In this document: positions 3,219 to 25,056 of the stretch, one piece after another | Position numbering within the stretch: position 1 is the stretch's first letter | Layout: each line of letters opens with the position of its first letter | Origin: a virus | IMG/VR virus record: IMGVR_UViG_3300027554_000001 | Length of the DNA: 61,010 nucleotides | Reading direction: 5' to 3' (one strand) | Notes under the pieces: model-generated | Told to the model about the DNA's origin: nothing | Seen by the model: the letters and a program-made list of their open reading frames with translations, nothing else | Database searches by the model: none | Translations under genes and position numbers: made by a program

Positions 3219-3224
3219 TATAAT
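3219..3224 (+). promoter_or_regulatory. Consensus -10 hexamer TATAAT
   Basis: Perfect TATAAT in the 174-bp low-GC gap before the GIY-YIG gene; no good -35 found. Confidence 0.3.
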
Positions 3225-3291
3225 GAAAGCGGGCCGGACGGTGCTTCTACACCGTGATCCGACCCTGACCATCAACGATCTGGAGATCGAT

Positions 3292-4086
3292 ATGGCTGGA
3301 CGAAATCATACCGGACACGAGACCTATCGTGCTTACAACTCCGATGGGCAGTGCCTGTACGTCGGGATGTCGTCGAATGCGTTGCGCCGCGTTACCGACC
3401 ATGCGTACCTGTCAGGCTGGTATGGGGAGGTGTCGCGTATCGAGATCGACCGACACGACTCCCACGAATCCGCGCTGGCGCACGAAAAGCTGCTGATCGC
3501 CAGCGCTCAGCCGCGATGGAATGTCCAGCACGGTGCGGACCCCGTCGTAAGGCGATCCGCTCGAAAGCGTCGCCTTGAGTCGCTGAAAGAAAAGCTGGCG
3601 TCAGAGCCCGGCGAATGGGTGAAGCACTTCCCGCACTTCGACGAGGTCATCATGCGGATGGACCGCCTCTTCGACTTGAAGCTGGCCCTGTACTTCGTTG
3701 ATCGCGCCATCGCGCAAGGCACGACGCGGTTCCGCATGGATGACGGGCGGAAGGCGTCGATCATGCAGAGGTTCGGCGTGTCGAAGGCTTCGGTGCAGAA
3801 TGCGATCACGCGCCTTGCCGAGCCGGTCGAGCTGGGCGGAGTAGAAATCCTCGTGAAGCTGGAGCGAGGGCACTACATCATCAACCCGCGCTTCTATTTT
3901 GTGGGGCGCGAGCCTGAGCACGACAACGCGCTGGACCTGTATCACAAGCTCAAGCGCGAGCGAGCACCGGCCATCAAGGCGCGCAAGGCGGCGCGCGAGA
4001 AGCGGAAGGCTCGACCGAAGAAGGCGACCGTGACAAAGCTGCGTTCTGTTGGCTCGCCGTCGAGCGGGGCGTCATTGCCACCCTGA
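3292..4086 (+). CDS. GIY-YIG nuclease fused to RepL-like winged-helix DNA-binding domain (homing-endonuclease-like)
   Basis: GGAG 6 nt before ATG 3292 (track start 3208 would contain the TATAAT). N-term 'YRAYNSDGQCLYVGMSSNALRRVTDH...AHEKLLI...PRWN' = GIY-YIG. C-term 'ASIMQRFGVSKASVQNAITRL...HYIINPRFYFVG' is RepL-like. Locally lower GC. Confidence 0.7.
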   Translation: MAGRNHTGHETYRAYNSDGQCLYVGMSSNALRRVTDHAYLSGWYGEVSRIEIDRHDSHESALAHEKLLIASAQPRWNVQHGADPVVRRSARKRRLESLKEKLASEPGEWVKHFPHFDEVIMRMDRLFDLKLALYFVDRAIAQGTTRFRMDDGRKASIMQRFGVSKASVQNAITRLAEPVELGGVEILVKLERGHYIINPRFYFVGREPEHDNALDLYHKLKRERAPAIKARKAAREKRKARPKKATVTKLRSVGSPSSGASLPP

Positions 4087-4179
4087 CAACAACGCCAGCA
4101 CTATCCACCCTCCCAGCCCGTACCATACTCACACGGATCATGTAAAGATCCGCACGGCAACGTCGAGAGGACGTAGCGC

Positions 4180-4407
4180 ATGGCAGCACTGGACCCGGAC
4201 GGTCTGGAGGCGGCAGGGTTGCACCGCTGGTCGATCCCGGAGCTCAACGCATCGGGGTGGACTCGCGGTGATCCTGTCGAGTTTGTGGAGTTCCATCGGG
4301 CGTGCGCTCGCGGGGATACCCCGAAGGCGCTGGCGTTTCGCCGGATGGTCGAGCGCGAGCGCCGGAATGGGCTGGCTCGGATGAATGCGGGGAGGAGGCC
4401 GAAATGA
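4180..4407 (+). CDS. Hypothetical protein (75 aa)
   Basis: ORF track; GAGAGG 9 nt upstream; no domain recognised. Confidence 0.55.
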   Translation: MAALDPDGLEAAGLHRWSIPELNASGWTRGDPVEFVEFHRACARGDTPKALAFRRMVERERRNGLARMNAGRRPK

Positions 4408-4601
4408 TGCGCTGGAGCATGGCGGCGCTGATGCTGCTGTCGGGGTGCGCGGCGACGCCCGAGCCGGTGACGGTCACGTACGAAACCGACCCGTACGGCG
4501 CGGTCTACCCGGTCGTGAATGGCGACGCCTACCCGCTGACGGATGATGAGCGTCGGGTGCAGGTGCAGAAGCTCGTCGACCTGTACTGCCCGGCCGAGTA
4601 G
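4404..4601 (+). CDS. Small lipoprotein (possible o-spanin-like lysis accessory)
   Basis: GGAGGAGG upstream, ATGA coupling. 'MMRWSMAALMLLSGC' = signal peptide + lipobox; 50-aa mature part with a C-terminal Cys; sits directly before the lysin gene. Confidence 0.65.
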   Translation: MMRWSMAALMLLSGCAATPEPVTVTYETDPYGAVYPVVNGDAYPLTDDERRVQVQKLVDLYCPAE

Positions 4602-5561
4602 ATGAATTGGCTCGGCGGATTGCTCGGCGGTGCAGCCAAGCCGATCAGCGAGTACGGCCAGTCCCGGCAGGAGACCGCGCAGTGGAAGCACCGCGCCGAT
4701 GCCATCATCGCCGTGGCTGCCGCATCGTGGCGCCCGTGGCTGGCTCGCCTGCTCGGCTGGTGCATCCTGATCCACGTGGCAGGCTCGGTGCTGCTGCTGA
4801 TCGGCATGGTCTACAGCGAGACGAGCGACGCGGTGTGGAGCTTGCTCGCCACCTGGGCGCTGTGGATGGCGTACGGGCGCACGCTCTTCGATCTGACGGC
4901 GACCCTGCTGGGGCTCTACATCGGAAGCCGGGGGCTGGAGAAGGTCGCGCCGGCTATCGGCGGTCCGGCCGGGCAGGCGTTGGGCGCTGCAGCGGGGTGG
5001 GTAACCGGCAACCGTGCAGCCCCGGAGGTCCAGCGTGATGATCTTCGATCGCATGACGCGCCGCTGCAACGGCTGGACGGGATCGTGGTGCCGGGCAGGG
5101 CGCAGGGCGTCGCGGCGACGCAGGGCTGGCAATGGGGGGCGCGCTCGACGCAACGGCTTTCCCATGCGCGCCAGGAGTTGCAGGATCTCTTCGACTGGCT
5201 TCTGCCGCGAAGCCCGTACGACCTGACGATCGGCGAGACGATCCGCAGCGTCGAGGAGCAGCGCGGGTACGTCGAAGGCGGCCAGTCACGCACGATGGAC
5301 AGCCGGCATCTTGAGCGCCCGGCCGCTGCCGTCGACTTCTACATCATCGATCCGAAAACCGGCAAGGCCAGCATGGGCGCGACCGAGCGTGAGCTGGACA
5401 TGTACCGGGAAGTGCTGACGATCCTGCGCGAAGGCTCCGAGGAGCTGGGCATCCCGGTCACGTCCGGCGGGATTGACTGGGGCTGGGATTTCTTTCACGT
5501 CGAGCTTGACCGAAAGCACTACCCGCGCGGCCCGAGCGTACTGGACGGCGTGCCCGCCTGA
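4602..5561 (+). CDS. Holin-like multi-TM domain fused to peptidase M15 endolysin domain
   Basis: N-term 'MNWLGGLLGGAAKPI...SWRPWLARLLGWCILIHVAGSVLLLIGMVY...WSLLATWALWMAY...LLGLYIGS' resembles the 3-TM GTA-type holin family (DUF3154). C-term 'EEQRGYVEGGQSRTMDSRHLERPAAAVDF...GGIDWGWDFFHVELD' = M15 (VanY/T5-lysin-like) H..D..H Zn site. Confidence 0.8.
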   Translation: MNWLGGLLGGAAKPISEYGQSRQETAQWKHRADAIIAVAAASWRPWLARLLGWCILIHVAGSVLLLIGMVYSETSDAVWSLLATWALWMAYGRTLFDLTATLLGLYIGSRGLEKVAPAIGGPAGQALGAAAGWVTGNRAAPEVQRDDLRSHDAPLQRLDGIVVPGRAQGVAATQGWQWGARSTQRLSHARQELQDLFDWLLPRSPYDLTIGETIRSVEEQRGYVEGGQSRTMDSRHLERPAAAVDFYIIDPKTGKASMGATERELDMYREVLTILREGSEELGIPVTSGGIDWGWDFFHVELDRKHYPRGPSVLDGVPA

Positions 5562-5949: not shown

Positions 5950-6383
5950 CTGAATTCCTGCGATACATCCCGACGGAAAGCCGCCCCAGTCGCCTGTCCC
6001 TGCTCGAGCACGAAGCCACCGCCGAGCTGGCTCGCGCATCGGCCCGGCGCGTATCGCTCGAATCGGGCGAGGCCGCGCGTCGGCAGTCGGTGCAGAGCAA
6101 GATATTCGAGGCGAGCCAATCCGAGAAGGTGGCGCGCGAGGAGCTGGCCGCGATCATCGCCCGGCAGGACGAGCTGCGCGCCGCACGACGAGCGCCGGCC
6201 AAGGCCGCACTGGACGCCGCTGTGCCGACGCTGACCGTGCGCGCACCGGTTGCCGAGTCCGACACCGCTCCGGCACCCGTCGAGGCCGTAGAGCCCATGC
6301 CCGACCCGACCATCGAGCCTGTCGAGCCGTGGCGGCTGATACCCGACATCAACCTGGACGACCCCGAGGACACATCCGCATGA
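5946..6383 (+). CDS. Hypothetical coiled-coil/Pro-rich protein
   Basis: ATGA coupling; track ORF 5934..6383. Confidence 0.55.
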   Translation: MTEFLRYIPTESRPSRLSLLEHEATAELARASARRVSLESGEAARRQSVQSKIFEASQSEKVAREELAAIIARQDELRAARRAPAKAALDAAVPTLTVRAPVAESDTAPAPVEAVEPMPDPTIEPVEPWRLIPDINLDDPEDTSA

Positions 6384-6739
6384 CCGACCTGAAGCAACGC
6401 GCAGCTGGCGCCTATGATGACGCCCGCGAGCGAGCCGCCGATGGCCTGCGCGACGACCTGGAAGGGCTCGGCGTTGACGTGCAGGAGGTACGCGACGGCA
6501 CCGCGAGCGCATCGAAGAAGCGCCGGATCATGCGCACCGCGCTCATCATCGGCGTGCTCGTCATCGTGCTGCTCGGCATTGCCACGACCTGCGCCACGGC
6601 CGCCACGCTCTACGTGATTCAGCCGGTCGCCGAGGTCGAGTCGTGCGAGGACATCGAGGCCGAGACGCAGCGGCTGATCGACGAAGGCGTCATCACGGCC
6701 GGCACGATGACGGTCTGCTCGGACGAGTCGGGCACCTGA
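6380..6739 (+). CDS. Bitopic membrane protein (119 aa)
   Basis: ATGA coupling; central TM 'ALIIGVLVIVLLGIATTCATAATLYV'; Cys-containing C-terminal tail. Confidence 0.55.
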   Translation: MTDLKQRAAGAYDDARERAADGLRDDLEGLGVDVQEVRDGTASASKKRRIMRTALIIGVLVIVLLGIATTCATAATLYVIQPVAEVESCEDIEAETQRLIDEGVITAGTMTVCSDESGT

Positions 6740-9194: not shown

Positions 9195-11251
9195 GCACGC
9201 ACACCGATCCTAGCGTACTGCGCGCAGGCGACCCGGACGTCGATCATCCGAGCCTACTCGCGGAGAGATTATCGGCCGGTGATCTTGCTGATGCGAGTGG
9301 CTTCGAGGCCATGTCTCTGGTGCTCAGGTCGATGGGCGCATCGGGTGTTTTCGCGTCGCGACAGTACAACACCAACACCCCGCTCGACCCGGCGACTCGA
9401 AAGCACGACGGTGCTTACGCCGCGCTGAACCTGCACGACCACAGCAACTACATGCTGATGTGCGGTCTCGCTGAATTCTCGGTCATCGTCAACGGCTGGC
9501 CCTACGCGTCAAGGCATCAGGATTATCGCTGGCGCAGATCGGTTCCGGCCGATGAAGACACTCTCGGAACGGAGTACACCCGCCCGCCCGAGGTGCCCGC
9601 AAGCATCGCGTCAAAGCCTCTCGGGCTCTCCGGCAACGACGTGAATCTGACAGACGACACTCAGATGCGAGCGTTCAGTCGGATTTTCGAGGACCACCCC
9701 GAGCAGGTTGAAATGCACCTTGCTTATCTTGAGCTGTGGTGGGAAAAAACGGATGGCGAGCTTCGAGACGCAGGCGACAGCTTTCGTCATTCCGATAGCG
9801 TTGACGACCTCCACGCGCAGTACGATAAGGCGGCACGGCTCGCGGCGACAGGCGGCAAGGAGCTGACAGAGAATCTGCCGTTCGGCCCGGTCGCGAAGCG
9901 CTACATTGAAGGCGGCATCGAGAAGATCGCATATCTGAATGCTCGGATGATGACGTGCAAGGTGGGCACGATGGCTCCTTCATCGGTCCATCAGCTCGCG
10001 CCGATCGTCACGATTCAGGCGTCCGACTCGCACGGGCACATCTTGCCCACGCAGATGACGGACGAGCAGGCCCGTCAGCTCCGCGATGGAGAGGTGGGCG
10101 AGGTGATTCTCACGTCCACCGACGTCAGCCATGTCCACGAGTACCGGATTACGTGGGACGGGGATTGGTACGTCGGCGTCGACACGAACGCCACGCACCA
10201 GCACGGCGTGCTGATCGAACGTGGTTATGATGGGGCGCTGCCCTACGATCGGGCAAAGGCGCTCGCGGGAATCGTCGATGACGGAAACGTGTTTTCACTC
10301 ATCGACGATCCGATAGCACGCGGCGAGAAATCGATTGATGACTGGGAGCGTAGCCGCTGGCCTCGCTTCCGCATTCCGCAGCTCGAACGCATTTGCGAGC
10401 GCGTTCCCGGTCTTGACGGCGAGGGTTCATTTATAAACGAGGTCTCGATACTGGACCCCGGACAGATAATGGTCGACCGCGATGGCGGCGTGCTGAACGC
10501 GGCCTACTACTCGCACACATTCGGCCAGTCTGGTAGTGATGCGTCCGGTCGACGAATCATCGGTCGAGGGTACAACGACCCGGCATTTTTCCGGGCGGCG
10601 ACGAACAAGAGTTTCGTGCTTGACGGGTCGTCGTACATGGTGCCGATAGAGATGCTCGCCCTTTCGCACATCAACGGCGCGAATCCCTACAATTTCTCCG
10701 TCGCGGAGGAGGCTGTGACGCGCGCCTCCGGAAATGGCACGGCTGTCGAGCCGTACGGGACCATCAGCGAGGCGAGCTTCTGGTACATCCAGCCGGCCGG
10801 CCTGTACGTCCCGACAGGGGAAGTCGATCCGGCCGATACCGGCCCCGCACGCTACGTGAGAGATCCGGGTGGGTCGCCTCGGCTGGTCTACGCGGGCGGC
10901 ATCGCACCGCACACGCCCGACAAGCTGCACCGCATTCGATTCCCGTGTTACCCGATCTATCAGGAGTACACTTGGGAGGCGGTGCGACTCGCTCACCTTC
11001 GCCGCGAGCTGTCCGGTGGCGGCACGTCGCTCAAGGTGCATTCAGTGTCTGCTGCCGGCGAGGCGTACGGCAGCGCAGCATTGGTCGCGGCGATCAGCGA
11101 TGTGCCCGGACAGACTGGCGAGCGGCTACACGTGACAGGGATGTCTGCGCCCGCTGGCAAGCCGACGACGGCGCGCTACTACTGGGGCGCGGTGAGCGAT
11201 GGCGCAGGCGGAAGCACGCCAGGGTGGATTGATGAGAGGACGGCCGCCTGA
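9191..11251 (+). CDS. Large hypothetical protein (686 aa), His-cluster region
   Basis: ATGA coupling. No family recognised. 'DSHGHILP...SHVHEY...ATHQHGV' could be a metal site. Lower GC in the 5' part. Confidence 0.65.
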   Translation: MSTHTDPSVLRAGDPDVDHPSLLAERLSAGDLADASGFEAMSLVLRSMGASGVFASRQYNTNTPLDPATRKHDGAYAALNLHDHSNYMLMCGLAEFSVIVNGWPYASRHQDYRWRRSVPADEDTLGTEYTRPPEVPASIASKPLGLSGNDVNLTDDTQMRAFSRIFEDHPEQVEMHLAYLELWWEKTDGELRDAGDSFRHSDSVDDLHAQYDKAARLAATGGKELTENLPFGPVAKRYIEGGIEKIAYLNARMMTCKVGTMAPSSVHQLAPIVTIQASDSHGHILPTQMTDEQARQLRDGEVGEVILTSTDVSHVHEYRITWDGDWYVGVDTNATHQHGVLIERGYDGALPYDRAKALAGIVDDGNVFSLIDDPIARGEKSIDDWERSRWPRFRIPQLERICERVPGLDGEGSFINEVSILDPGQIMVDRDGGVLNAAYYSHTFGQSGSDASGRRIIGRGYNDPAFFRAATNKSFVLDGSSYMVPIEMLALSHINGANPYNFSVAEEAVTRASGNGTAVEPYGTISEASFWYIQPAGLYVPTGEVDPADTGPARYVRDPGGSPRLVYAGGIAPHTPDKLHRIRFPCYPIYQEYTWEAVRLAHLRRELSGGGTSLKVHSVSAAGEAYGSAALVAAISDVPGQTGERLHVTGMSAPAGKPTTARYYWGAVSDGAGGSTPGWIDERTAA

Positions 11252-11780: not shown

Positions 11781-14032
11781 GTATCTTTCTCAGCATCGTT
11801 CTATCCAACGGCTCACGGCTGCCGCTCGGCGCGTCCAGCCCGCCCACGCCCGTCAGCGCGTTCGTGATGCACGAGCTGCGGCAAGACGGCGGCGGCACGC
11901 ACAATGCCATCGCGTTCTCGCCGGACGGCAACACCCTCGCCGCCTTCGCAGACGTCGGCGGCACGCGACACCGCACTGGGTCGCAGGGCTGGCGCTACCT
12001 GCCGACGCTGGGCGACAACGCGAGCCGGCAGGTCGCAGGCGGCTGCGCGACGGACGATGGGAAGCTGTTCCAGATCGCGGGCAACGGGACGAGCGCAGGC
12101 GTGCTGCAGGAGATCGACATCGCCACCGGCGCGGCCGTGGAGCTGGTCAGCGGGTTGTACGTCGGGGCCAACCGGTTGAGCGACGGGGACAGCGGCCCGC
12201 GCCCCAGGCCGGTTGGGTGGATGGTCACGTACGACAAAGGCCGTGACCTCGTCTACTACTGCACGGAGAAGGGTGTCGGCCGGTACAACCGGACCACGAG
12301 CACGGACGACGGCATCATCGCGCTGCCCGACGAGTCGTGCCGGGGGTTCTCGCACCGCGAGCACGCCATCGTCATCTCGCCCGGCAGTCTGGAGGTATGC
12401 ACGCACACGCAGGGCATGCAGCGCATCGACGCACCGCACGCCGGGGCAGCCGCGACACGCATCTCGCCGGCCGCGTGGGATCGATTCGAGGACGCCGCGA
12501 TTCTCGACGACGACGGGCTGCTCTGCGCAGGCCACGAGGACGGTGTGCTACTGATCCGCAGCGACGGTTCGACGCTGGACGTGACGCCGTCGCAGAACAG
12601 CGGCACGGGTGCGTCGGGCGGCACGACGCGCTGGATCGCGGTCGCGGTGCAGGGCGACATGGCAGCGCTGGGCATGATCAACCCGGACGGCCCGGAAGAA
12701 TGGATCTACCGGCACACCGACGTGAGCAATGCGACGGCTGCCACTTGGGACAACGCGACACCGACCGAGGCCGTGTTGCAACTTGGGTCCACGTACCTGT
12801 CGCCGGCAAATCGCGTGCTTGGCGCCTCGGCAGGCTCCGGCCCGGATCTCGTCGGCACCAACTGCCTCGCTTTCGACCCGAGCGATCCGACCGGCAACAC
12901 GTTGCACCTGTCGCTCGCGCTGTCGCTGTACCGCACGACGAACTTCGCCGGCTCGGCCAGCGCGATCACGTACGAGTCCGACAACGAAGGGCTGTCGATG
13001 GTGTCGATGGCCGCATCGCACATCGACGGCAACGGCACGGCGTGGCTCACGATGGCCGATCACAACGTCAGCGGCATCGAAGCAGATGGCCTGCTCACGG
13101 ACGAGCTGCACGAGCTGTCCGTGTCGGGCATCTCGGATGGGTGGGGGCTGTGGTCGGCAGGATCAGGTACGGACAACGTCGTCGTCTTCTCGGCTACATC
13201 CGATCGCGACGCCTTCGACCCGGGCGGGGATATCTACTACCGGCGCGGCACGAGCGTCACCGATGGCTGGGTATCGACCGGCTTCGCTGACGACTTTCGC
13301 GGACAGGGCTCGACAGAGGCGACCGGTGTGCCGCGTGTCGGTGGCGTTTTCGGCTGGGATAGAGGCGATGGCACTCACCGCTTCGTCGGCTGGGCGGACG
13401 GGCTGGGCTTCGTCTACTCCGATTACACGCTCGCCAGTGACTCGTGGGGGACATGGCAAGTACAGAGCAGCGGCCCGACGAGCGGACTGGTATCGGCGAA
13501 TCGCAAGAGCGAGCGCGACATCCGAGGCGCGAGTGACGGCAGCGTGATCTTTGGCATCCAACTCATTGACGGCCAGCTGTGGCGCAGCCTGAACGGGGGC
13601 GTGGACTGGACGAAAATCGCATCCAGCCTCGGCACGGATCAGGAAGTGCGCGTTGGCCGGATCGACTATCTCGAAGCGGCGGACGTGCTGATCTACTCGG
13701 ACGAGAATGGCCTGCACAAGATCGCCAACGCCTCAACCTCGGCCGATGTCGTCACCATCAGCGGCATCACGACGCCGTGCCAGGTGGCGGTCGATTCAGC
13801 CGGCCGGGCGTACGCGCATGTACGCGGCCCCGGATTGTCCGACCTGCTGCGCTGGGACGACTTCGCGAGTGCCACGTCCGCAAGTGACGCGACGCAGATC
13901 GCGACCGACGACTACCGTTCGCGCGTCGGGGATCTTGCGACGTGCATGACGATCGGCACGATCGATGGCACCGAGTACGGCCTGACGGGCTACAGCGGTT
14001 CCGGAGCGGCGGTGTGGACAGTGCCGGCGTGA
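11777..14032 (+). CDS. BNR/Asp-box-type beta-propeller protein (receptor-binding or depolymerase candidate)
   Basis: GTGA coupling (track start 11627 rejected). 751 aa rich in G/S/T/D/W. 'AFSPDGNTLA' and Asp-box-like 'SLNGGVDWTKI'. Confidence 0.65.
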   Translation: MSIFLSIVLSNGSRLPLGASSPPTPVSAFVMHELRQDGGGTHNAIAFSPDGNTLAAFADVGGTRHRTGSQGWRYLPTLGDNASRQVAGGCATDDGKLFQIAGNGTSAGVLQEIDIATGAAVELVSGLYVGANRLSDGDSGPRPRPVGWMVTYDKGRDLVYYCTEKGVGRYNRTTSTDDGIIALPDESCRGFSHREHAIVISPGSLEVCTHTQGMQRIDAPHAGAAATRISPAAWDRFEDAAILDDDGLLCAGHEDGVLLIRSDGSTLDVTPSQNSGTGASGGTTRWIAVAVQGDMAALGMINPDGPEEWIYRHTDVSNATAATWDNATPTEAVLQLGSTYLSPANRVLGASAGSGPDLVGTNCLAFDPSDPTGNTLHLSLALSLYRTTNFAGSASAITYESDNEGLSMVSMAASHIDGNGTAWLTMADHNVSGIEADGLLTDELHELSVSGISDGWGLWSAGSGTDNVVVFSATSDRDAFDPGGDIYYRRGTSVTDGWVSTGFADDFRGQGSTEATGVPRVGGVFGWDRGDGTHRFVGWADGLGFVYSDYTLASDSWGTWQVQSSGPTSGLVSANRKSERDIRGASDGSVIFGIQLIDGQLWRSLNGGVDWTKIASSLGTDQEVRVGRIDYLEAADVLIYSDENGLHKIANASTSADVVTISGITTPCQVAVDSAGRAYAHVRGPGLSDLLRWDDFASATSASDATQIATDDYRSRVGDLATCMTIGTIDGTEYGLTGYSGSGAAVWTVPA

Positions 14033-17374: not shown

Positions 17375-18043
17375 ATGCCCGCAGCGATCATACTGGAGTT
17401 CGGCCAGCGTTTCGGCCGATGGACCTATCAGTTCGATGTAGAGTCGAAGACCACGCCGGGTGGCGTGAAGAAGCGTCAAGCACTCTTCCGGTGCGAGTGC
17501 GGCACAGTCTCGATCGTGGACACAAACATCGTCCGCAGCGGCCAATCTCAGTCTTGCGGATGCCTTCACCGCGAGAGAGTGGGCAACCGATTCAGGAAGC
17601 ACGGGGCCACAGGCTCTGAAACTCGCGGCACGCGTCATACACGGGCGTATCGCTCGTGGAGCCACATGCATGATCGCGTCCGAAACCCGAACACTTGGTC
17701 ATTCGAGCACTACGGCGGCCGGGGCATACAGGTCTGCGAGCGGTGGTCGGGGCGCGATGGCTTCAAGGCGTTTTTGTCCGACATGGGCGAGCGCCCCGAA
17801 GGGAAGACCCTAGACCGATTCCCCGATATAGACGGCGACTACGAGCCGGGAAATTGTCGTTGGGCGACTCATGATCAGCAGATGGCAAACCGCCGGTGCA
17901 GCTATCGTTGGATCGTCGGTGGCGTTGAGTACGATTCGGCGCGCAAAGCAGGCGAGGCTTGCGGGCTTTCGCTCAGCGGCATGATGTACCGATGCAGCAG
18001 CGCGAACTTTCCCGAGTTCGTGCGCGAGCGTCGGTACCCATGA
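17375..18043 (+). CDS. Homing-endonuclease-like DNA-binding protein (HNH_3/AP2-like core, C-terminal HTH)
   Basis: 'YRSWSHMHDRVRNP...YGGRGIQVCERW..F..FLSDMGERPEGKTLDRFPDIDGDYEPGNCRWATHDQQMAN' is a widespread phage HNH/AP2-like family pattern. Low-GC flank; sits right before terS. Confidence 0.55.
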   Translation: MPAAIILEFGQRFGRWTYQFDVESKTTPGGVKKRQALFRCECGTVSIVDTNIVRSGQSQSCGCLHRERVGNRFRKHGATGSETRGTRHTRAYRSWSHMHDRVRNPNTWSFEHYGGRGIQVCERWSGRDGFKAFLSDMGERPEGKTLDRFPDIDGDYEPGNCRWATHDQQMANRRCSYRWIVGGVEYDSARKAGEACGLSLSGMMYRCSSANFPEFVRERRYP

Positions 18044-18441
18044 GCGAGGGCAAGCTGACCGTCAAGCAGCGCCGCTTCGTTGCGGAATACTGCATTGATG
18101 CGAACGCCACACGCGCAGCCAAGGCGGCCGGATACAGCGAGGACACGGCCCACGCTATCGGTCACGAGAACTTGAGCAAACCTGAAGTGCGGCAGGAGAT
18201 TGACAGGCAGGAGGCCGACCGTCTGTCAGCCGCATCGTTGACTGCTGACTTCGTGCTGGCCGGCCTGATAGCCAACGTCGAGGCCGCTCGCAACGCCGAG
18301 AAATTCAGCGACGTCAACAAGGGGTTGGAGCTGCTGGGCAAGCGCTTGTCCATGTGGATCGAGAAGACGGAGAACGTCACGACGCTCAACGGTGCTACCG
18401 AGGTGCGTGTGATCGAGGTGCCGGCCAAGGGAAGCGTGTGA
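18040..18441 (+). CDS. terS: Terminase small subunit
   Basis: ATGA coupling. 'LTVKQRRFVAEYCIDANATRAAKAAGYSEDTAHAIGHENLSKPEV' = Terminase_2 signature. Confidence 0.85.
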   Translation: MSEGKLTVKQRRFVAEYCIDANATRAAKAAGYSEDTAHAIGHENLSKPEVRQEIDRQEADRLSAASLTADFVLAGLIANVEAARNAEKFSDVNKGLELLGKRLSMWIEKTENVTTLNGATEVRVIEVPAKGSV

Positions 18442-19799
18442 TCGAGCCGCGCCACGTCTGGCAGGCATCGCCCAAGCAACGGGAGTTCCTGGCCGCTGAC
18501 GAGCCGGAGGTGCTATTCGGCGGTGCGGCCGGAGGGGGCAAGTCGGATGCGCTGATTATCGATGCGCTCGGGCTGGCTCAGGGCGCGATCGAGGTCTCAA
18601 CATACAGCGCGATCATCTTCCGCCGCACCTACGCCGAGCTGGAGCAGCTGATCGAGCGATCGGCGGCGCTGTACACGCAGATCAGCCCCGGCGCCAAGTT
18701 CAACGAAACCCACAAGACGTGGACCTTTCCGTCCGGTGCCAAGATCCGGTATCGCTACCTCGAGCGCCCCGCCGATCGATTCCGTTATCAAGGCTCAGAA
18801 TTTCAGTACATCGCCTTCGACGAGCTGACGCAGCACCCGACCGATGTGGGTTACGAGTACATGCAGTCGCGGCTGCGCTCGGGCACGAATCGGCTGAATC
18901 TCTACGTGCGCGCCACGTGCAACCCTGGCGGCTTCGGGCATGAGTGGGTGCGCGATCGATGGCTGATCCCGGATGACGGGCAGGCGTCCACCAACGTGAT
19001 CGACATGGACGGTGAGCCGTGGACGCGCCGATTCATCCCGTCGCGCATCAGCGACAACGCCTATCTGGCTGGCACCGGTTACGAGAAGCGCCTGAAGATG
19101 CTGCCCGAGATGGAGCGCAAGGCGCTGCTGGAGGGCCGCTGGGACGTGATCGAGGTGGTGGGCGCGATCTATGGCGACGAGATCGCGCAGATGTACGAGG
19201 ACGGCCGGATATGCGGCGTGCCGATCGAGCCGCGCCTGCCGGTCTACACGTTCTGGGATCTGGGCAGGTCCGATGCCACGGCGGCGTGGATGATGCAGAG
19301 CGTGGGCATGGAGCGGCGGCTGATCGGCTACAAGGAGGATCGGTTCAAGTCGATCTCGTGGTGGGCCAAGGAGATGCGCGAGTGGGCCAAGGTCAAGCGC
19401 ATCGGGTACGCCGATCACTACATGCCGCACGACGTCGAGGTGCGTCAATTGAGCCTCAACAACGCCAGCCGCAAGGAGATGTTCGAGGAGGCGGGCATCA
19501 GCCCGATACAGGTGGTGCCGCGCGTGCAGTTCATCGAGGACGGCATCGACGTCACGCGCGAGTTCCTGGCGACGTGCTGGATCGATCGGCAGGGGTGCGC
19601 GGACGGGCTCAAGGCGCTCGCCAACTACCGCCGCGAGTACAACGAGGGGCAGGACGTGTACAGCCAGAAGCCGCTGCACAACTGGGCGTCCAACGGGTCG
19701 GATGCGCTCAGGCAGGCCGCGCAGGGCTTCGTGCCGCCCGAGCGGTATCGATTCGAGAAAGGCAGCTACGAGCCCGAAGCCTTCGAGGAGGTGTACTGA
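18438..19799 (+). CDS. terL: Terminase large subunit
   Basis: GTG overlapping the terS stop. 'PKQREFLAADEPEVLFGGAAGGGKSDAL' Walker A; 453 aa; typical position. Confidence 0.9.
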   Translation: MIEPRHVWQASPKQREFLAADEPEVLFGGAAGGGKSDALIIDALGLAQGAIEVSTYSAIIFRRTYAELEQLIERSAALYTQISPGAKFNETHKTWTFPSGAKIRYRYLERPADRFRYQGSEFQYIAFDELTQHPTDVGYEYMQSRLRSGTNRLNLYVRATCNPGGFGHEWVRDRWLIPDDGQASTNVIDMDGEPWTRRFIPSRISDNAYLAGTGYEKRLKMLPEMERKALLEGRWDVIEVVGAIYGDEIAQMYEDGRICGVPIEPRLPVYTFWDLGRSDATAAWMMQSVGMERRLIGYKEDRFKSISWWAKEMREWAKVKRIGYADHYMPHDVEVRQLSLNNASRKEMFEEAGISPIQVVPRVQFIEDGIDVTREFLATCWIDRQGCADGLKALANYRREYNEGQDVYSQKPLHNWASNGSDALRQAAQGFVPPERYRFEKGSYEPEAFEEVY

Positions 19800-19830
19800 G
19801 GCGGGGCGTAAAATAAGCTGCAGAAAGTGG

Positions 19831-19859
19831 TGGACATGTCGATACGTGGTGTGTAATCT
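19831..19859 (+). promoter_or_regulatory. Candidate sigma70-like promoter for the accessory island
   Basis: TGGACA (19831..19836), 17-nt spacer, TAATCT (19854..19859) inside the 105-bp low-GC gap after terL. The -10 is weak. Confidence 0.25.
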
Positions 19860-19904
19860 AGTTACCAAGGTCGCAGCAGCGGCCAACCACCTGGAAACGC
19901 CGCC

Positions 19905-20369
19905 ATGATCACTCTCTACCACGGCACGCACGAGCACTCACTGCCCGCGATCCGCACCGGCATGATCAATGGCGGACTGTTTGACGGCATCTTCGCCGGA
20001 ACCGAGCGTGACATCGCCCTGTCCCATGCGCCGAGTGTTTTCGAGATTGACGTGCCGGCTGACCGCATCGCTTCGTCATTCGATCTGGCACAGGCCGATC
20101 ACGAGGCGATCCGGGCGACGCTGCAGCGCGAGACGGGCGCGGATGACGCCGACCTGCTCGACGAGCTGTACGACGCTGTCACGAGCGACACGCCGGACGC
20201 TGACGACTTCGTCGGGCGCATCGGCACGCGCAGTTTCGCGGATGAGTTCGCCGCGACGTCGTGGGAGCTGCAGCGTCTGCGCGGTCGCATCGCTGCCGAT
20301 CTCGGCTATCTCGCGGTCGAGATGGACGACGAGCACGGGACGAGCTACCTCGTGCTCGGGATCGCCTGA
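19905..20369 (+). CDS. Hypothetical protein with ADP-ribosyltransferase-like (H-Y-E type) N-terminal motif
   Basis: 'ITLYHGTHEHSLPAIRTGMINGG...GIFAGT' resembles the [IL]YH-x-TH...L..I...G start of DarT/PolyVal-type ARTs and diphtheria toxin 'YHGT'. Assignment is tentative. Confidence 0.4.
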   Translation: MITLYHGTHEHSLPAIRTGMINGGLFDGIFAGTERDIALSHAPSVFEIDVPADRIASSFDLAQADHEAIRATLQRETGADDADLLDELYDAVTSDTPDADDFVGRIGTRSFADEFAATSWELQRLRGRIAADLGYLAVEMDDEHGTSYLVLGIA

Positions 20370-20374
20370 CCCGC

Positions 20375-20417
20375 CCCGGCGCACGGACGCACCCCAACTC
20401 ACACACGAGACGCCGCC
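20375..20417 (+). repeat. Conserved intergenic leader, copy 1
   Basis: CCCGGCGCACGGACGC (16/16 identical to 20788..20803), then CACAC-CGAGAC-GCCG, then ATG. Confidence 0.7.
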
Positions 20418-20765
20418 ATGCACACGATCTACGCAATCCACCACCCCGACGCCGACAAGCTCGCGGCCATCATCGCCGAGATGCGCGACCTGGGTGCGCC
20501 GACGATCGAGGCCGTCGACTGCAGTGACTACTTGATGGCGATCGAGGGCTCGCATCGCCTCGCCGCCGCCCACGCTTTAGGCATCGCGCCCATCGTCACG
20601 ATCCACGAGCAGGACGACGAGGTCGACGTGCACGGGTACGACTGGGACGCGAGCGACTACGGCGATTTGTTGGAGGACCGGCAGTACACGGCGGGCGAGA
20701 TCGCCGGCGCGCTGTACGACCACACGAGCGCTGTCGCGTACGCGTTCGACGAGGCGCACGACTGA
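20418..20765 (+). CDS. ParB/Srx-fold N-terminal-domain-like protein
   Basis: 'APTIEAVDCSDYLMAIEGSHRLAAAHALGIAPIVTI' fits the ParB-N 'v..idGhHRl.Aa..lG' motif. Confidence 0.55.
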   Translation: MHTIYAIHHPDADKLAAIIAEMRDLGAPTIEAVDCSDYLMAIEGSHRLAAAHALGIAPIVTIHEQDDEVDVHGYDWDASDYGDLLEDRQYTAGEIAGALYDHTSAVAYAFDEAHD

Positions 20766-20787
20766 TGCCCCACGGCATCGCCAACGA

Positions 20788-20834
20788 CCCGGCGCACGGA
20801 CGCGCTCCACTTCACACGCGAGACCGCCGACACG
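20788..20834 (+). repeat. Conserved intergenic leader, copy 2
   Basis: See 20375..20417; about 85% identity over about 45 nt by hand alignment; ends at ATG 20835. Confidence 0.7.
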
Positions 20835-21083
20835 ATGACTGCCACGACGCACGACAATGCAAACGACTATCCCTGCGAGTGCTGCCACGAAACCGGACTG
20901 ATCGGAGATCGCGGCGATTACTGCGACGGGGCATCACCTTCGCTGCACTTCTGCCACTGCGAGCGCGGCAACGAAAAGCAAGACCACGAAGAAGCACGAG
21001 AGACGCAGGCAGCTGGAAATGACTGGCCGGAGCGCGAGCGCGTCCCGCTGGTCTGGGGTGGCGATTTGGAGGAAATGCGGTGA
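20835..21083 (+). CDS. Cys-rich small protein (82 aa)
   Basis: 'YPCECCHETGLIGDRGDYCDG...LHFCHCERG' Zn-finger-like; ORF track. Confidence 0.5.
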   Translation: MTATTHDNANDYPCECCHETGLIGDRGDYCDGASPSLHFCHCERGNEKQDHEEARETQAAGNDWPERERVPLVWGGDLEEMR

Positions 21084-21337
21084 TCGCCGGCTGCTACCAC
21101 ATGGACCTCTACTGCGATGCCAGCGACAACTGCGAGGCACGTGCATTACGACGTCACGGTGGCACGGAAAAGTGGACAAGCAACGGACTGGTACAGACCG
21201 AAGCCGATGCGCGCAAGGACGCACGCGCGGACGGATGGCGCTTCGAGCGCGGCGGAGACCGCGTGCTTTGCCGTAATTGCTGGGAGTCTGGAATACGATT
21301 CGCTACGCTAGATGCCTTTGCCGAGGCGCCCGCCTGA
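21080..21337 (+). CDS. Cys-containing small protein (85 aa)
   Basis: GTGA coupling; 'CYHMDLYCD...C....GW...LCRNCW'. Confidence 0.5.
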   Translation: MIAGCYHMDLYCDASDNCEARALRRHGGTEKWTSNGLVQTEADARKDARADGWRFERGGDRVLCRNCWESGIRFATLDAFAEAPA

Positions 21338-21540
21338 TGCCCCGAGGACAAGCAGCAGACCCGACCAAGGACGGCCGACGCGGAGACGGCCCGCCGTTGC
21401 GTGACACGGGCGATCGGCTGCAACTGCTGCTGCCGGCTGGCACGAAACAACGCTGGAAGGCCGAGGCAAGGCGGCGCCGCATGTCAATTACCGCGCTCGT
21501 GCAAGAGCGAATGGACCAACCAAACAGGAGAGACACATGA
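21337..21540 (+). CDS. Ribbon-helix-helix-like protein (67 aa)
   Basis: TGATG coupling; 'RLQLLLPAGTKQRWKAEARRRRMSITALVQERM' strand-helix-helix pattern. Confidence 0.45.
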   Translation: MPRGQAADPTKDGRRGDGPPLRDTGDRLQLLLPAGTKQRWKAEARRRRMSITALVQERMDQPNRRDT

Positions 21541-21758
21541 CACGCACCTTCTACCTGGACGACGCCATGCGCGCCGAAGGCGAGGACTTCCGCAACGTAT
21601 CCCCGTCCTATCGCTTCAGCAACGGGCGGGAGTTTCGCGACGAGGCCCCGCGAGCGGCCGCACCGATCGCACCGTACGTGGCGCCCACCGTGCTGCCGTA
21701 CGTGGAGCCTGTGACGCCTGCCAGCGTGGTGGTGGCGGGGGATTGGGAGCCATCATGA
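21537..21758 (+). CDS. Hypothetical protein (73 aa)
   Basis: ATGA coupling both ends; ORF track. Confidence 0.5.
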   Translation: MTRTFYLDDAMRAEGEDFRNVSPSYRFSNGREFRDEAPRAAAPIAPYVAPTVLPYVEPVTPASVVVAGDWEPS

Positions 21759-22063
21759 GCACCCTAACCCGACGGGGCTTCATCCGACTCGGCGCCGCTG
21801 GCCTTGTCATGGCTGCAGCGCCTGCGATCGTGCGGGCTGACTCGCTGATGCCGGTGCGTGCGGTGCCGGAGTGGCATCGTGTCCGGGTGGCGCTGATGCC
21901 GGATGGAACATTTGAGTGGAAGGTATGGGACGATCAGCCGGTAATGAGGCAAGCGGACAGGGATCAAGCCATTCACGAGGCGTTTCGCAAGGCGGCGATG
22001 AATATGGATTTCACGCGTCTGCGCGCGCACATGGCGCGCTGCTGCGTGGTAGCTCCATCATGA
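21755..22063 (+). CDS. Twin-arginine (Tat) signal-peptide protein (102 aa)
   Basis: 'MSTLTRRGFIRLGAAGLVMAAAPAIVRA/DS' = S/T-R-R-x-F-[LI]-[KR] Tat motif + h-region + AxA site. Track start 21401 rejected. Confidence 0.6.
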   Translation: MSTLTRRGFIRLGAAGLVMAAAPAIVRADSLMPVRAVPEWHRVRVALMPDGTFEWKVWDDQPVMRQADRDQAIHEAFRKAAMNMDFTRLRAHMARCCVVAPS

Positions 22064-22407
22064 AGCCCCTACCCCTCGCCCTCGCATCCCTCGCCCTGCT
22101 GGCGGGCACGGCCGATGCATCTTTCTACAACGGTAACGACCTGCACGGATGGTGCGGCACTACCCCTGCCGAGCCGGGCTACAACAGCGACCGTGCACAG
22201 TGCATGGGCTACGTCGTCGGGCTGGTCGATGGGCTAACCGGCATCGGCACGGCGGGCGACGCGCTGTGCCTGGAGGGCAAGACGGCTGCGCAGGTCACGG
22301 ACGTGGTGGCGAAGAATCTGCGCGACCATCCTGCGGGGCGCGACCGACTGGGCGTGGATGTGGTCTTCTTCGCGCTGCTGCAGGCGTTTCCTTGCGATGA
22401 CGACTAG
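22060..22407 (+). CDS. Rap1a/Tai4-like periplasmic immunity-type protein
   Basis: Signal peptide 'MKPLPLALASLALLAGTADA'. 'NGNDLHGWC...CMGYVVGLVDG...LC..GKTAAQVTDVVAKNLRDHP....VVFFALLQAFPC' follows the Rap1a family pattern as I remember it. Confidence 0.6.
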   Translation: MKPLPLALASLALLAGTADASFYNGNDLHGWCGTTPAEPGYNSDRAQCMGYVVGLVDGLTGIGTAGDALCLEGKTAAQVTDVVAKNLRDHPAGRDRLGVDVVFFALLQAFPCDDD

Positions 22408-22457
22408 CTGACGATTCACTACGGGCCTTTTCATGCCCGCAACACACGCCACAAACC

Positions 22458-22470
22458 GCTCCTACAGTGG
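22458..22470 (+). promoter_or_regulatory. GCTCCTACAGTGG motif (putative -10; ATG 6 nt after TACAGT)
   Basis: Exact 13-mer; TACAGT 22463..22468, then GGTCGT, then ATG 22475; no SD. Confidence 0.35.
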
Positions 22471-22474
22471 TCGT

Positions 22475-22825
22475 ATGGCGAAACAATACCGCACGGCCGA
22501 CCCGGTCCTGATCCGCGCTCTGTGCGCCGACATCGCAGGCATAGCGCAGCGCGAGTACCCGTGGTACGCGTGGGGCGTGCGAGCCACGGCCGATGGCTCG
22601 ATGATCGAGATGATCTGTGACGTGCCGGGGCTTGCGACGACCGAGGGCTGGATGTTTTCCACCGAGCGCATCCAGCAGGTCAGCGGACGCACGCGCATGA
22701 TCCGGGCCGCCTGCGGCGAGATCCTGGAGCGCTTCGGCCTGTCTCGCGAGCGCAAGACGCCGCTGGCTGATGTCGCCGCCCACCTGTACCGCGACACGCG
22801 CGGCGAGCTGCACGCGCGCCACTGA
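22475..22825 (+). CDS. Hypothetical protein (116 aa)
   Basis: Track ORF 22433..22825 trimmed to the ATG after the motif; TGATG-coupled to portal. Confidence 0.55.
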   Translation: MAKQYRTADPVLIRALCADIAGIAQREYPWYAWGVRATADGSMIEMICDVPGLATTEGWMFSTERIQQVSGRTRMIRAACGEILERFGLSRERKTPLADVAAHLYRDTRGELHARH

Positions 22826-25056
22826 TGCGCCACGGGGATGCGGTAGGGCTGTCGTACAACCTGTCGGACGGGACGGACCCGGCCGACGGGGCGAATGGGG
22901 CGAGCGGTGACCCGACCGTGGAGCAGGCGCCGTCTGATGATCCGTTTGCGGTGCTGGGCGGCATAGGGGCGCTCCTGCAGCTATCCGAGCAGTGCCTTGT
23001 GGACTCGACGCACTACCTCGACAGCAATGTCAGGCGACAGATCGAGACCAACCTAGCCAACTTCCAGTCGCGCCACCCGGCAGGCTCGAAGTACCACAGC
23101 CCGACCTACAAGCACCGCTCGCGCCTTTTCGTGCCCCGTACGCGCTCCGTGGCGCTGCGCACCGAGGCCGCTGGTGCTGCCGCCTTCTTCAGCACGCGCG
23201 AGGCCACCTTCGTCGAGCCACGCAGCCAGGACGACCCGGCGCAGGTCGCAGGGGCAGCGCTGCACCACAAGCTGCTCGAGCACCGGCTCAAGCACAGCAT
23301 CAAGTGGTTTCAGACCGCGATCGGGGCAATCCAGGATTGCTTCGTGCAGGGCGTGTGCATCAGCCGCCAAGGCTGGGACTACCGTGTGGACTCGGACGGC
23401 GAGGTCATCGCCGATCAGCCCACCGTGACGCTGATCCCGATCGAACACCTGAGATGGCAAGCCTCGGCGGACTGGTGCGACCCGTTGGCCGATTCGGAGT
23501 ACCTGATCGAGATCATGCCGATGACGGTGGCGCGCGTGATGGAGCGCATGCGGCCCGTTGGGGAGGAGCCGCCCGAGTGGCGCCCGGCCTCCTGGTCGGC
23601 CATCGCCACCGCTGCCCGCACGCCCGACAGCCTGCAGTCGGCACGCGAGAGCAATCGAGGCGCCCCGGACGACAACGAAACCGTACCGCTGCATCGGATC
23701 GTCTACGTGTACCGGCTTATCGTGCGCCGCGAGGGCATCGACTACACGTGGTACTCGCTCGGCACCGATCACCTGCTGACCGCTCCCGCGCGGTTGAAGG
23801 ACATCAACCCGCAGGGTAGGCGCCTGTACCGCATGGGCGCGATGAATATCGAGAGCCACCGCGCGGTGCCGCAATCGACCGCCGAGCACTTGATGGGGCT
23901 GCAGGCGGACGTCAACCACACGCGCAACGATCGAAAGGACAACGTCGCGCTCGCGCTCAACAAACGCTATCTGGTGAGCCGCAACGGCCGCGTCGACATG
24001 CCCGCGCTGATGCGCAACGTGCCGGGCGGGTCGATCTCGGTCAACGACGTCAACTCGTCGGTCAAGGAGATCCAGACCAATGACGTGACCGCGTCGAGCT
24101 GGCGCGAGGAGGAGAGCACCAACGCCGCCTTCGACGAGATGGCGGGCAGCTTCTCGCAATCGTCCGTCAACACCAACCGCCGCATGAGCGAGACGGCGGC
24201 CGGCATGGAGCTGATCGCAGCCGATGCCAACGTCATCACGGAGTACCACCTGGAGGTCTTCGCGACGACCTGGTACGAGCCGGTGCTGCAAGACCTGTTG
24301 GCGCTGCAGCAGGCATTCGAGAGCGACGAGACGGTCATCGCCTTGGCAGCCGAGCAGATGGAGTTGGCCGCCGAATACGGGCTCGGCATGCCCACCGAGG
24401 AGATCATGAGCGCACCGGTGACGCTGAGCGTATCGGTGGGTGTGGATGCGACCAACCCGACGCGGAGATTCGAGCGGCTGCAGGCGCTGGGGCAGTCCGG
24501 GGCGGCACTGGGTCTGGAGCCGAACGGTCCGGAGCTGTACCGCGAGATGGCGGGCTCCTTGGGATTCGACAATGGCGATCGCTTCATCATCCAGCCCGAT
24601 CCGAATGCCCAGCCCGCACCGGACCCTGTCGCCGAGCAGGCCGCGATGCAGCAGGAGGCCGAAGACATGAAGGCGCAGGTCATGCAGGCGAAGATGGAGC
24701 AGGACGGCCAGATCGCCATGCAGCGCATGCAGCTGGACGCCGAGCGATTGCAGGCTGATGCGACCCGTGCGCAGCAGCAATACGAGATCGCGATGGCGAA
24801 GATGCAGATCGATGCCGAGAGTCGCATCCAGCAGGGCGAGCAGAATGCGATGGATGAGCAGGCAGCGCTCCAGTCACGCGAGGAGATCGCGCTGATGCAG
24901 GACTCGACCACGCGCGAGATCGCCGGGCTCAACGCCGAGTCGGCACGTCAGCAGAAGCTGCTCGACGGGGAGATCATGCTGCAGCGTGAGGCGATGAAGC
25001 CGCAGCCCCAGCCCGTACAATCGGGGGGTGATTCCAATGGGGGGTACTTGTCGTGA
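22825..25056 (+). CDS. Portal protein
   Basis: 743 aa, directly upstream of scaffold and capsid genes. C-terminal about 150 aa is Q/A/E/M-rich coiled coil, reminiscent of P22-type portal barrels. No profile run. Confidence 0.65.
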   Translation: MRHGDAVGLSYNLSDGTDPADGANGASGDPTVEQAPSDDPFAVLGGIGALLQLSEQCLVDSTHYLDSNVRRQIETNLANFQSRHPAGSKYHSPTYKHRSRLFVPRTRSVALRTEAAGAAAFFSTREATFVEPRSQDDPAQVAGAALHHKLLEHRLKHSIKWFQTAIGAIQDCFVQGVCISRQGWDYRVDSDGEVIADQPTVTLIPIEHLRWQASADWCDPLADSEYLIEIMPMTVARVMERMRPVGEEPPEWRPASWSAIATAARTPDSLQSARESNRGAPDDNETVPLHRIVYVYRLIVRREGIDYTWYSLGTDHLLTAPARLKDINPQGRRLYRMGAMNIESHRAVPQSTAEHLMGLQADVNHTRNDRKDNVALALNKRYLVSRNGRVDMPALMRNVPGGSISVNDVNSSVKEIQTNDVTASSWREEESTNAAFDEMAGSFSQSSVNTNRRMSETAAGMELIAADANVITEYHLEVFATTWYEPVLQDLLALQQAFESDETVIALAAEQMELAAEYGLGMPTEEIMSAPVTLSVSVGVDATNPTRRFERLQALGQSGAALGLEPNGPELYREMAGSLGFDNGDRFIIQPDPNAQPAPDPVAEQAAMQQEAEDMKAQVMQAKMEQDGQIAMQRMQLDAERLQADATRAQQQYEIAMAKMQIDAESRIQQGEQNAMDEQAALQSREEIALMQDSTTREIAGLNAESARQQKLLDGEIMLQREAMKPQPQPVQSGGDSNGGYLS

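Follow-up and report, generated by a model that had tools for sequence, protein, structure and literature searches.

Among described phage systems, the acr–aca operons and the moron hotspots come closest to the locus analysed here. Anti-CRISPR (acr) loci sit within the head-gene region of Mu-like Pseudomonas phages. The anti-CRISPR AcrIF11 is highly specific for Csy1, and its activity is abolished by mutating D115 in AcrIF11Pae1, D146/E147 in AcrIF11Pae2 or the N-terminal His; across the family there is little conservation of the helical region proposed to recognise the target (PMC12421852). Aca14 provides the precedent for a regulator of the ribbon-helix-helix (RHH) type among the Aca proteins (PMC13551039). 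A second relevant family is Rap1a/Tai4 (PF18602), whose members neutralise the Ssp1/Tae4 amidases of type VI secretion systems (T6SSs). Members of both the AcrIF11 and the Rap1a families are predicted between the large terminase subunit gene (TerL) and the portal gene of an uncultured phage, IMG/VR record IMGVR_UViG_3300027554_000001. The whole stretch that was analysed, a contig of 61,010 bp with ~65% GC, is called the window, and the genes between TerL and the portal are called o1 to o9 (Table 1).

The TerL–portal interval is likely a plasticity zone of phages with an SU10-type portal, in which the backbone TerL–o6–o9–portal carries two inserted sets of unrelated accessory genes. The order in the window is TerL, {o1 o2 o3 o4 (o5?)}, o6, {o7 o8}, o9, portal. 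Insert 1 would occupy positions 19800–21540, immediately downstream of TerL, where a 105-bp spacer precedes o1–o4 and the doubtful o5. Insert 2 would occupy positions 21755–22407, between o6 and o9, with o7 and o8. The accessory genes would not form one machine, having been gathered separately at a permissive site. The region is a mosaic accessory-gene hotspot of the already known moron or anti-defence kind, a new example and not a new type of system. According to their profile matches, the best-identified parts, o1 (AcrIF11) and o8 (Rap1a), belong to described families.

Relatives were collected through the portal. Six close relatives (L003, L005, L007, L009, L010 and L011), whose portals are 37–49% identical to that of the window, were fetched and compared by all-against-all BLAST and small hidden Markov models. 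Single-sequence portal scans of IMG/VR and of the GTDB genomes gave no match, whereas alignment-based scans did find relatives. In IMG/VR, the alignment-based scan confirmed at least 567 relatives among the first 600 pattern matches, and 80 were kept. More distant portal relatives sit within bacterial contigs that are 4.65 Mb and 0.76 Mb long, and the bins with relatives are mostly of Beta- and Gammaproteobacteria.

The original prediction started from the premise that TerL and the portal are normally neighbours. For this lineage the premise is false, as at least ~560 bp of conserved small genes always lies between them. In the 23 of ~86 relatives in which TerL was detectable, a subsample with TerL on the same strand, the TerL–portal distance is 557–2479 bp with a median of 670 bp, and the 3029 bp of the window is the largest. 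The shortest gaps have room for little besides an o9-like gene and a small open reading frame (ORF). TerL and the portal are never adjacent in the lineage, and the interval is best described as a zone of plasticity around a fixed backbone. In other relatives these slots hold different extra genes. The longer gaps hold unrelated extras, identified by eye as HslV-like, SIS-like, membrane-protein and Zn-ribbon-like ORFs, and in the cultured Escherichia coli phage HelliStehle_Bas95 the gap holds head-fibre and tail-fibre genes. None of the relatives examined carries o1–o4, o7 or o8. The comparison of TerL–portal junctions proposed in the original prediction thus returned a variable hotspot.

By their distribution, o6 and o9 are conserved core genes of the lineage and not accessory genes. 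In each of the six close relatives the o9 homologue either overlaps the portal start or directly adjoins it, with pairwise E values of 1e-16 to 1e-23. In 77 of the 80 IMG/VR loci an o9 homologue lies directly upstream of the portal; in the remaining three the portal is at the contig edge. Bas95_0009 of HelliStehle_Bas95 is also an o9 homologue (E = 4e-18). The family shares the motif YP.Y.WGV...DGSMI...GEILER (window; L154–L233; L259, 3900–4268), and it has no match in Pfam, PHROG or PDB; a profile search of PDB with the family gave a non-significant PepSY entry as the best match (E = 0.096). The shorter, 116-aa form of o9 is that of the JGI gene call. For o6, the homologues in L005 (b69, E = 1.7e-5) and L010 (88 aa) are free-standing small genes. 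In L003 and L007, the N-terminal 36 residues of o6 (window 21537–21656) correspond to the C-terminal tail of larger proteins of 465 and 585 aa (a465, 9451–9567, and c585, 6379–6504, respectively). This arrangement suggests that the YxFSNGR module could be an anchoring or targeting peptide able to carry cargo. The o6 motif was found in at least 12 relatives, among them L154, L196, L203, L218, L223 and L230, where small ORFs with the motif lie upstream of the o9 homologue. Conservation of the island genes in relatives as virion or assembly genes had been named beforehand as the observation that would speak against an accessory island; such conservation was found for o6 and o9 and not for the rest. 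The statement that none of the ten ORFs looks morphogenetic stands for most of the interval, which is accessory; in their conserved presence and position beside the portal, o6 and o9 match the head-morphogenesis core of phages with SU10-type portals.

Table 1. Features of the TerL–portal interval and its boundaries in the window.
Feature	Position	Strand	Description
TerS	18040–18441		Terminase_2, 86.5 bits
TerL, left boundary	18438–19799	+	453 aa; tblastn to annotated large terminases; weak precomputed Terminase_6N match
Spacer with weak promoter-like pair TGGACA-17-TAATCT	19800–19904	+	105 bp; pair at 19831–19859
o1, candidate anti-CRISPR	19905–20369	+	154 aa; AcrIF11-family ADP-ribosyltransferase (by homology)
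Leader repeat copy 1	20372–20411	+	between o1 and o2
o2, minimal ParB/Srx-fold protein (predicted)	20418–20765	+	115 aa
Leader repeat copy 2	20785–20824	+	between o2 and o3, within ORF 20765–21022
o3, Cys/His-rich	20835–21083	+	82 aa; gene-caller call; GC3 0.69
o4, Cys-rich	21080–21337	+	85 aa; phrog_926 (unknown function), E = 4.5e-10; GC3 0.66
o5, doubtful ORF or ~200-bp non-coding gap	21337–21540	+	67 aa; uncalled by gene callers
o6, backbone gene	21537–21758	+	73 aa; N-terminal FxLDxxM...YxFSNGR
o7, Tat-like leader protein	21755–22063	+	102 aa; GC3 0.69
o8, Rap1a/Tai4-family periplasmic protein (predicted)	22060–22407	+	115 aa; predicted N-terminal signal peptide
GCTCCTACAGTGG motif	22458–22470	+	4 nt upstream of o9 ATG 22475
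o9, portal partner gene, right boundary of accessory region	22475–22825	+	116 aa from ATG 22475; 130 aa from 22433
Portal, SU10 type	22825–25056	+	precomputed PF23899 SU10_portal; 29 homologues

Abbreviations: aa, amino acids; GC3, GC content at third codon positions; Tat, twin-arginine translocation.

Single extras of the relatives were also recorded by eye. L203 has an HslV/Ntn-hydrolase-like 154-aa ORF after TerL (2903–3367), L223 has a HExxH-containing 145-aa ORF and a membrane protein after the o6-like gene (3545–4245), and L230 has a SIS/GmhA-like 167-aa ORF between o9 and the portal (3216–3719). The L003 protein a465 shows an EIDIFE-like motif and, by eye, the look of a GH16/lectin domain. 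A small gene after TerL in four of the close relatives ('fam1', DDPPFR...PFVRVD) was looked for in the island as well; it is absent from all six island frames, and o5 is not homologous to it.

The positions given for TerL and the portal in the original prediction hold, as do most of its domain guesses. Its ten ORFs are too many, since gene callers from three sources predict eight genes there. ORFs 20765–21022 and 21337–21540 (o5) are both absent from a collection of 15 billion proteins, and the former looks non-coding with a GC3 of 0.55. According to these features, the two ORFs are probably not genes, or are at least doubtful. In line with the translational coupling suggested earlier, stop and start codons overlap at six junctions (o3/o4, o4/o5, o5/o6, o6/o7, o7/o8 and o9/portal). 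The GC3 values of o3, o4 and o7 are 0.66–0.69, versus 0.81–0.93 for o1, o2, o6, o8, o9, TerL and the portal. The low values may be a sign of separate acquisition or of a separate unit.

The boundaries of the cassettes carry repeated sequences. The duplicated leader noticed earlier is real, the two copies being 85% identical. A 36-nt degenerate leader pattern occurs at these two sites only, with 0 expected, and the repeats are not significant as RNA structures (z = 0.11 and -1.46). A 22-nt junction repeat (CTGATGC[CG]CC...) is present at 20754–20775 (o2 end), 21326–21347 (o4 end) and 22814–22835 (o9/portal), all of which are stop/start boundaries. At their 3' ends, o2 and o4 share 83% identity over ~30 nt (20742–20771 versus 21314–21343). 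The cassettes may have been inserted through recombination at short repeats, with these junction and leader repeats as its trace, and the repeats are consistent with separate gathering of the accessory genes.

The original prediction favoured one coherent undescribed cassette of 3 kb, whose ten products act jointly in host manipulation, counter-defence or conversion. The tight same-strand packing with many stop/start overlaps, the spacer ahead of the block and the absence of a morphogenesis domain in o1–o8 would fit such a cassette. However, it already fails for o6 and o9, which are core genes of the lineage, and two of its ORFs are called nowhere. None of the 139 loci with homologues of o1, o2 or o7 holds any other island gene. 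As these homologues turn up elsewhere unaccompanied by other island genes, there is no evidence of joint action. Together with the two separate slots and the heterogeneous codon-position GC, these results make a single cassette very improbable. The ten-gene cassette resolves into two core genes, two doubtful ORFs and two separate inserts with members of known families. What is left of the host-manipulation and counter-defence idea is one anti-defence family (AcrIF11) and one T6SS-immunity family (Rap1a), which do not form a joint cassette.

The location also raises the question of whether the small genes encode unrecognised head-morphogenesis, packaging or virion-internal proteins, for example proteins packaged and injected with the DNA. 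They lie in a late operon between TerL and the portal with no convincing promoter of their own, o6 and o9 are conserved beside the portal, and ParB-like proteins are often found near terminases, as are the o2 homologues in eight loci. A structural role is nevertheless quite unlikely for the set, because o1–o4, o7 and o8 are missing from all the relatives examined, the families of o1 and o8 are non-structural, and the export signals of o7 and o8 are incompatible with a location in the capsid. Two inserts in a conserved backbone remain the preferred description.

The best identified product of insert 1 is o1. It matches the NCBIfam equivalog model NF052490 with 90.1 bits (cut-off 50) over model positions 2–142 of 142, and it has the precomputed assignment PF26151 and belongs to phrog_11282. 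In a phmmer search against PDB, o1 matched AcrIF11 in 6KYF (E = 1.8e-13) and 8DWQ (E = 1e-4). In both alignments, H6 (LYHGT) and D142/E143 (MDDEHGT) of o1 coincide with the catalytic residues of AcrIF11. The earlier guess of a protein like an ADP-ribosyltransferase is thus borne out and narrowed to the AcrIF11 family by the curated model, the PDB matches and the aligned catalytic residues. By analogy with the family, o1 would use NAD+ to ADP-ribosylate Cas8f/Csy1 of the type I-F surveillance complex, and target-DNA binding would be blocked. Judged by homology, anti-CRISPR action on type I-F Cas8f/Csy1 is most likely. Phages of Moraxella, Erwinia and Yersinia carry o1 homologues with 36–43% identity, and so do 21 IMG/VR proviruses; all 21 of these loci are without any other island gene.

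Compared with AcrIF11Pae1 (6KYF) and AcrIF11Pae2 (8DWQ), o1 shares the full-length model match, the N-terminal H-G motif and the D-E pair, and like the known members it is carried by a phage. It differs in its location between TerL and the portal of a high-GC uncultured phage, in having no verified adjoining aca gene, and in its identity to the characterised proteins, which is just ~35–40% in the best-aligned stretches. This low identity leaves some room for an active ADP-ribosyltransferase with another host target, such as RNA polymerase, a translation factor or a different defence system, in place of type I-F Cascade. The poor conservation of the target-recognition helical region within the family (PMC12421852) points the same way. 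On the other hand, o1 scores far above the cut-off of the AcrIF11 equivalog model, and AcrIF11 is Csy1-specific (PMC12421852). Another target is accordingly unlikely, and the type I-F anti-CRISPR assignment of o1 is preferred.

The neighbours o2, o3 and o4 would be candidates for further anti-defence or host-takeover proteins by their position alone; guilt by association is not backed by co-occurrence elsewhere. For o2, 88 homologues of ~107 aa were collected, some of which are labelled ParB-like in the source. The family has invariant GAP and G.HR..AA..LG motifs with near-invariant flanks (GAPTI, EGSHRLAAAxxLG). In 36 homologues, the G.HR core of the EGSHR motif is invariant and E and S are near-invariant. 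The AlphaFold2 (AF2) model of o2 has a predicted local distance difference test score (pLDDT) of 89. In a Foldseek search, the top 24 PDB neighbours all have the ParB/Srx fold (ParB, Noc, Spo0J, sulfiredoxin, SerK and SbnI), with probabilities of up to 0.96 and E values of 0.15–1 over ~57 aligned residues, about half of the protein. The viral structural neighbours are annotated as ParB/Srx as well. The Pfam ParBc model (PF02195) matches none of 36 family members, and o2 of the window is without any Pfam match. Thus, the ParB/Srx-like label of the original prediction holds at the level of the fold, and ParBc does not detect the protein. Stand-alone phage ParB/Srx-fold proteins resemble o2 in the fold core, in the Gly-x-x-Arg motif (EGSHR) and in the position of several homologues near terminases. 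Unlike ParB, the o2 family (~107–115 aa) is without the helix-turn-helix (HTH) and dimerisation domains. Other island genes are absent from all 52 viral loci with o2 homologues. In 8 of the 52, the homologue lies ~0.2–4.5 kb from a TerL gene, mostly within 2 kb, and in L050 it is directly downstream of TerL.

Two Cys-rich proteins, o3 and o4, are present as had been claimed. No family match was found for o3 in Pfam, PHROG, NCBIfam or PADLOC, and the single cultured-phage match of o4 is in Agrobacterium phage 7-7-1 (34%). No protein of the island matches the PADLOC defence models. The RHH protein of the original prediction is o5, and this assignment was not upheld. The ORF has no Pfam, NCBIfam or PDB match, it is not a called gene, and its single-sequence AF2 model (pLDDT 59) contains one long helix only (36–59). 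In favour of a gene are the stop/start overlaps at its two ends. The 5' part of the ORF is similar to both the leader repeat and the junction repeat.

In insert 2, o7 and o8 are both predicted to be exported, o7 by a Tat leader and o8 by a Sec signal. The o7 sequence shows a T-R-R-G-F-I-R motif, an Ala-rich h-region and V-R-A. It scores 13.6 bits against TIGR01409, below the cut-off of 16.7, and Pfam TAT_signal matches 2 of 12 family members. The claim of a twin-arginine-exported protein is therefore backed by the leader motif and falls short of the model cut-off. An exhaustive HMMER search with o7 gave 16 matches at E <= 1e-3; about ten are small proteins aligned mainly over the first ~40–70 residues, and the o7 tail matches no other small protein. 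The leader was found in 66 IMG/VR loci (L088–L153) that span 36–66% GC, in proteins of ~80–170 aa with unrelated tails. It is near-invariant (RRxF...AAPAIVRA(S/G/A/D)SLMPV), and the conservation extends past the predicted cleavage site. Some loci carry tandem copies (L104, L112 and L122). The positions of the genes vary: just upstream of P22-type portals, beside coat genes, and in replication modules. All 66 loci lack other island genes, including an o8 homologue beside the leader gene. In cultured phages, tblastn gave no match for o7, o8 or the Tat-leader consensus, for which the low-complexity filter may have an effect. No description of the o7 Tat-leader family was found in the literature, and nothing directly relevant was found on phage-borne Rap1a/Tai4 or Tat-leader morons.

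As a separate observation, L003 carries two additional genes after its portal, ahead of the next conserved gene (12336–12964). One of them encodes a 102-aa protein with a Tat-like leader and an unrelated mature part, and the site is a second small insertion slot after the portal.

The Rap1a/Tai4-like assignment of o8 was corroborated. The protein matches PF18602 with 62.6 bits, above the gathering score (cut-off 27.7), over residues 24–112 and the full length of the model (positions 1–90 of 90), and it belongs to phrog_3870 (E = 5e-13). By eye, a Sec-type signal peptide, MKPLPLALASLALLAGTADA, can be read, with cleavage before S. No close relative of o8 was found in 50,697 cultured-phage records or in the IMG/VR contigs. 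The whole-domain match, the small size and the signal peptide implying a periplasmic location are shared with Rap1a/Tai4. It differs from that family in being encoded by a phage, in having no nearby effector or T6SS gene, and in giving no match to the solved structures. By homology, the exported o8 would act in the periplasm, where it would neutralise a peptidoglycan amidase of the Tae4/Ssp1 type by binding it. Such an activity, which we infer from the family and the signal peptide, would give the infected or lysogenic cell protection against T6SS attack, or stop a cell-wall hydrolase that is incoming or acts prematurely.

A related explanation is that o8, perhaps with o7, is a periplasmic inhibitor of a phage-associated hydrolase, serving superinfection exclusion or restraint of the phage's own lysis and not T6SS immunity. 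The T4 protein Spackle is the analogy, with exclusion of superinfecting phages and restraint of a lysis enzyme. Since no amidase or T6SS gene adjoins it, o8 would be an orphan immunity gene, and in a phage with no detected integrase a long-lived lysogen facing T6SS attackers is not assured. In addition, the exported phage family to which o7 belongs is hypervariable, as is typical of arms-race functions. Still, immunity to T6SS amidases is what defines the Rap1a family, no phage hydrolase target was identified here, and the o7-family genes elsewhere are not beside Rap1a homologues. We consider a Spackle-like role rather unlikely, and keep T6SS-amidase immunity as the more likely role of o8. A more speculative proposal, to which we give a low probability, is that o7 and o8 constitute a phage-delivered envelope module, the o7 family being an unrecognised polymorphic exported class, and that separately o2–o4 could be new anti-defence proteins riding with AcrIF11. 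If the envelope module were real, the o7-type proteins would, while infection proceeds, remodel the periplasm or shield it, and a captured T6SS immunity protein would let infected cells survive attack by neighbours until burst.

The 105-bp spacer ahead of o1 was confirmed as a low-GC segment, with 56% GC versus ~65% around it. The promoter-like hexamers reported in it are present, TGGACA at 19831–19836 and TAATCT at 19854–19859 with 17 nt between them. The pair matches just 8 of 12 consensus positions and is weak. A scan for σ70-like sites gave none at the tool threshold anywhere in 17–26 kb, and the RNA fold of the spacer is not significant (z = -0.64). The copy of the GCTCCTACAGTGG motif reported within the island was also found. 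With up to two mismatches, the window has seven copies versus 0.93 expected, three of which are exact; they start at 5585, 14062, 22458, 25190, 32678 and 37190 on the plus strand and at 41679 on the minus strand. An ATG follows 3–4 nt downstream of four of the seven (5604, 14078, 22475 and 37206). The motif is absent from relatives, and among the 259 fetched loci it occurs just in this phage's own contigs (L001, L002 and L014). The TACAGT/TACAAT within GCTCCTACAGTGG could serve as the -10 element of late transcripts, which would possibly be leaderless. The o8–o9 intergenic sequence has an RNA fold z of -2.86. The motif 4 nt before the o9 start and the structured o8–o9 spacer together suggest a separate late unit starting with o9 and the portal.

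Several observations weigh against a hotspot with anti-defence and immunity inserts as set out above. The gap statistics describe a subsample of the relatives, and the structural matches of o2 cover about half of the protein. The accessory genes lie inside the late packaging and head block, preceded by the weak promoter-like site, and early production is expected of an anti-CRISPR. No Aca-type regulator was verified beside o1, o5 being the sole candidate discussed, and no operator-like inverted repeat was found in the spacer (19795–19910). The acr–aca operons and moron hotspots resemble the locus in that an acr-family gene is followed by small unknown genes at a variable site in the structural block, after a non-coding spacer; they differ from it in these points of regulation. 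For o8, phmmer against the solved Rap1a/Tai4 sequences gave no match, and the precomputed Pfam annotation of the flanks, where the neighbours are o7 and o9, contains no cognate amidase effector or T6SS family. Neither the precomputed Pfam annotation nor an extra Pfam scan of the genome gave an integrase. As a result, benefits that depend on lysogeny are uncertain and a role in lysogenic conversion is doubtful.

The analysis maps an insertion hotspot with its o6/o9 backbone in a large, mostly uncultured group of phages with SU10-type portals, and the slot can be mined for accessory and anti-defence genes. It adds in o1 a divergent high-GC AcrIF11 homologue in a new genomic context, with three small neighbours as anti-defence candidates, and two widespread uncharacterised families, the portal partner o9 and the hypervariable Tat-leader family of o7. 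If functional, o8 would tie phage infection to interbacterial warfare. No new mechanism is involved, and current understanding is not overturned.

The window carries a 127-nt exact direct repeat at its two ends (1–127 and 60884–61010). Because of this repeat, the genome is probably a complete, circularly assembled one of ~60.9 kb. The same metagenomic phage genome is also present as an ENA contig of 60,955 bp, and neither near-identical DNA nor a near relative of the window was found among the cultured-phage records. No tRNA gene was found in the window. In the precomputed annotation, an SU10-type adaptor lies downstream of the portal. The early region looks lambdoid, with ERF, YqaJ, NinG, HTH_3 regulators and an IstB-like loader. 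A by-eye guess of an M15-type endolysin for ORF 4602–5561 received no support from Pfam.

The terminases of the relatives with similar portals differ. The window TerL is 58% identical to that of L007, which contains an intein (2240–4459, 739 aa, Intein_splicing), whereas BLAST gave no match between it and the TerL of either L003 or L005. Similar portals with different terminases indicate that the TerL/portal boundary is also a module-exchange point. In the early region, ORF 54630–55358 encodes a 242-aa protein with a C-terminal HTH of the CRP family (Pfam Crp, 26.7 bits; NCBIfam CRP, partial), which is unusual for the early region of a phage.

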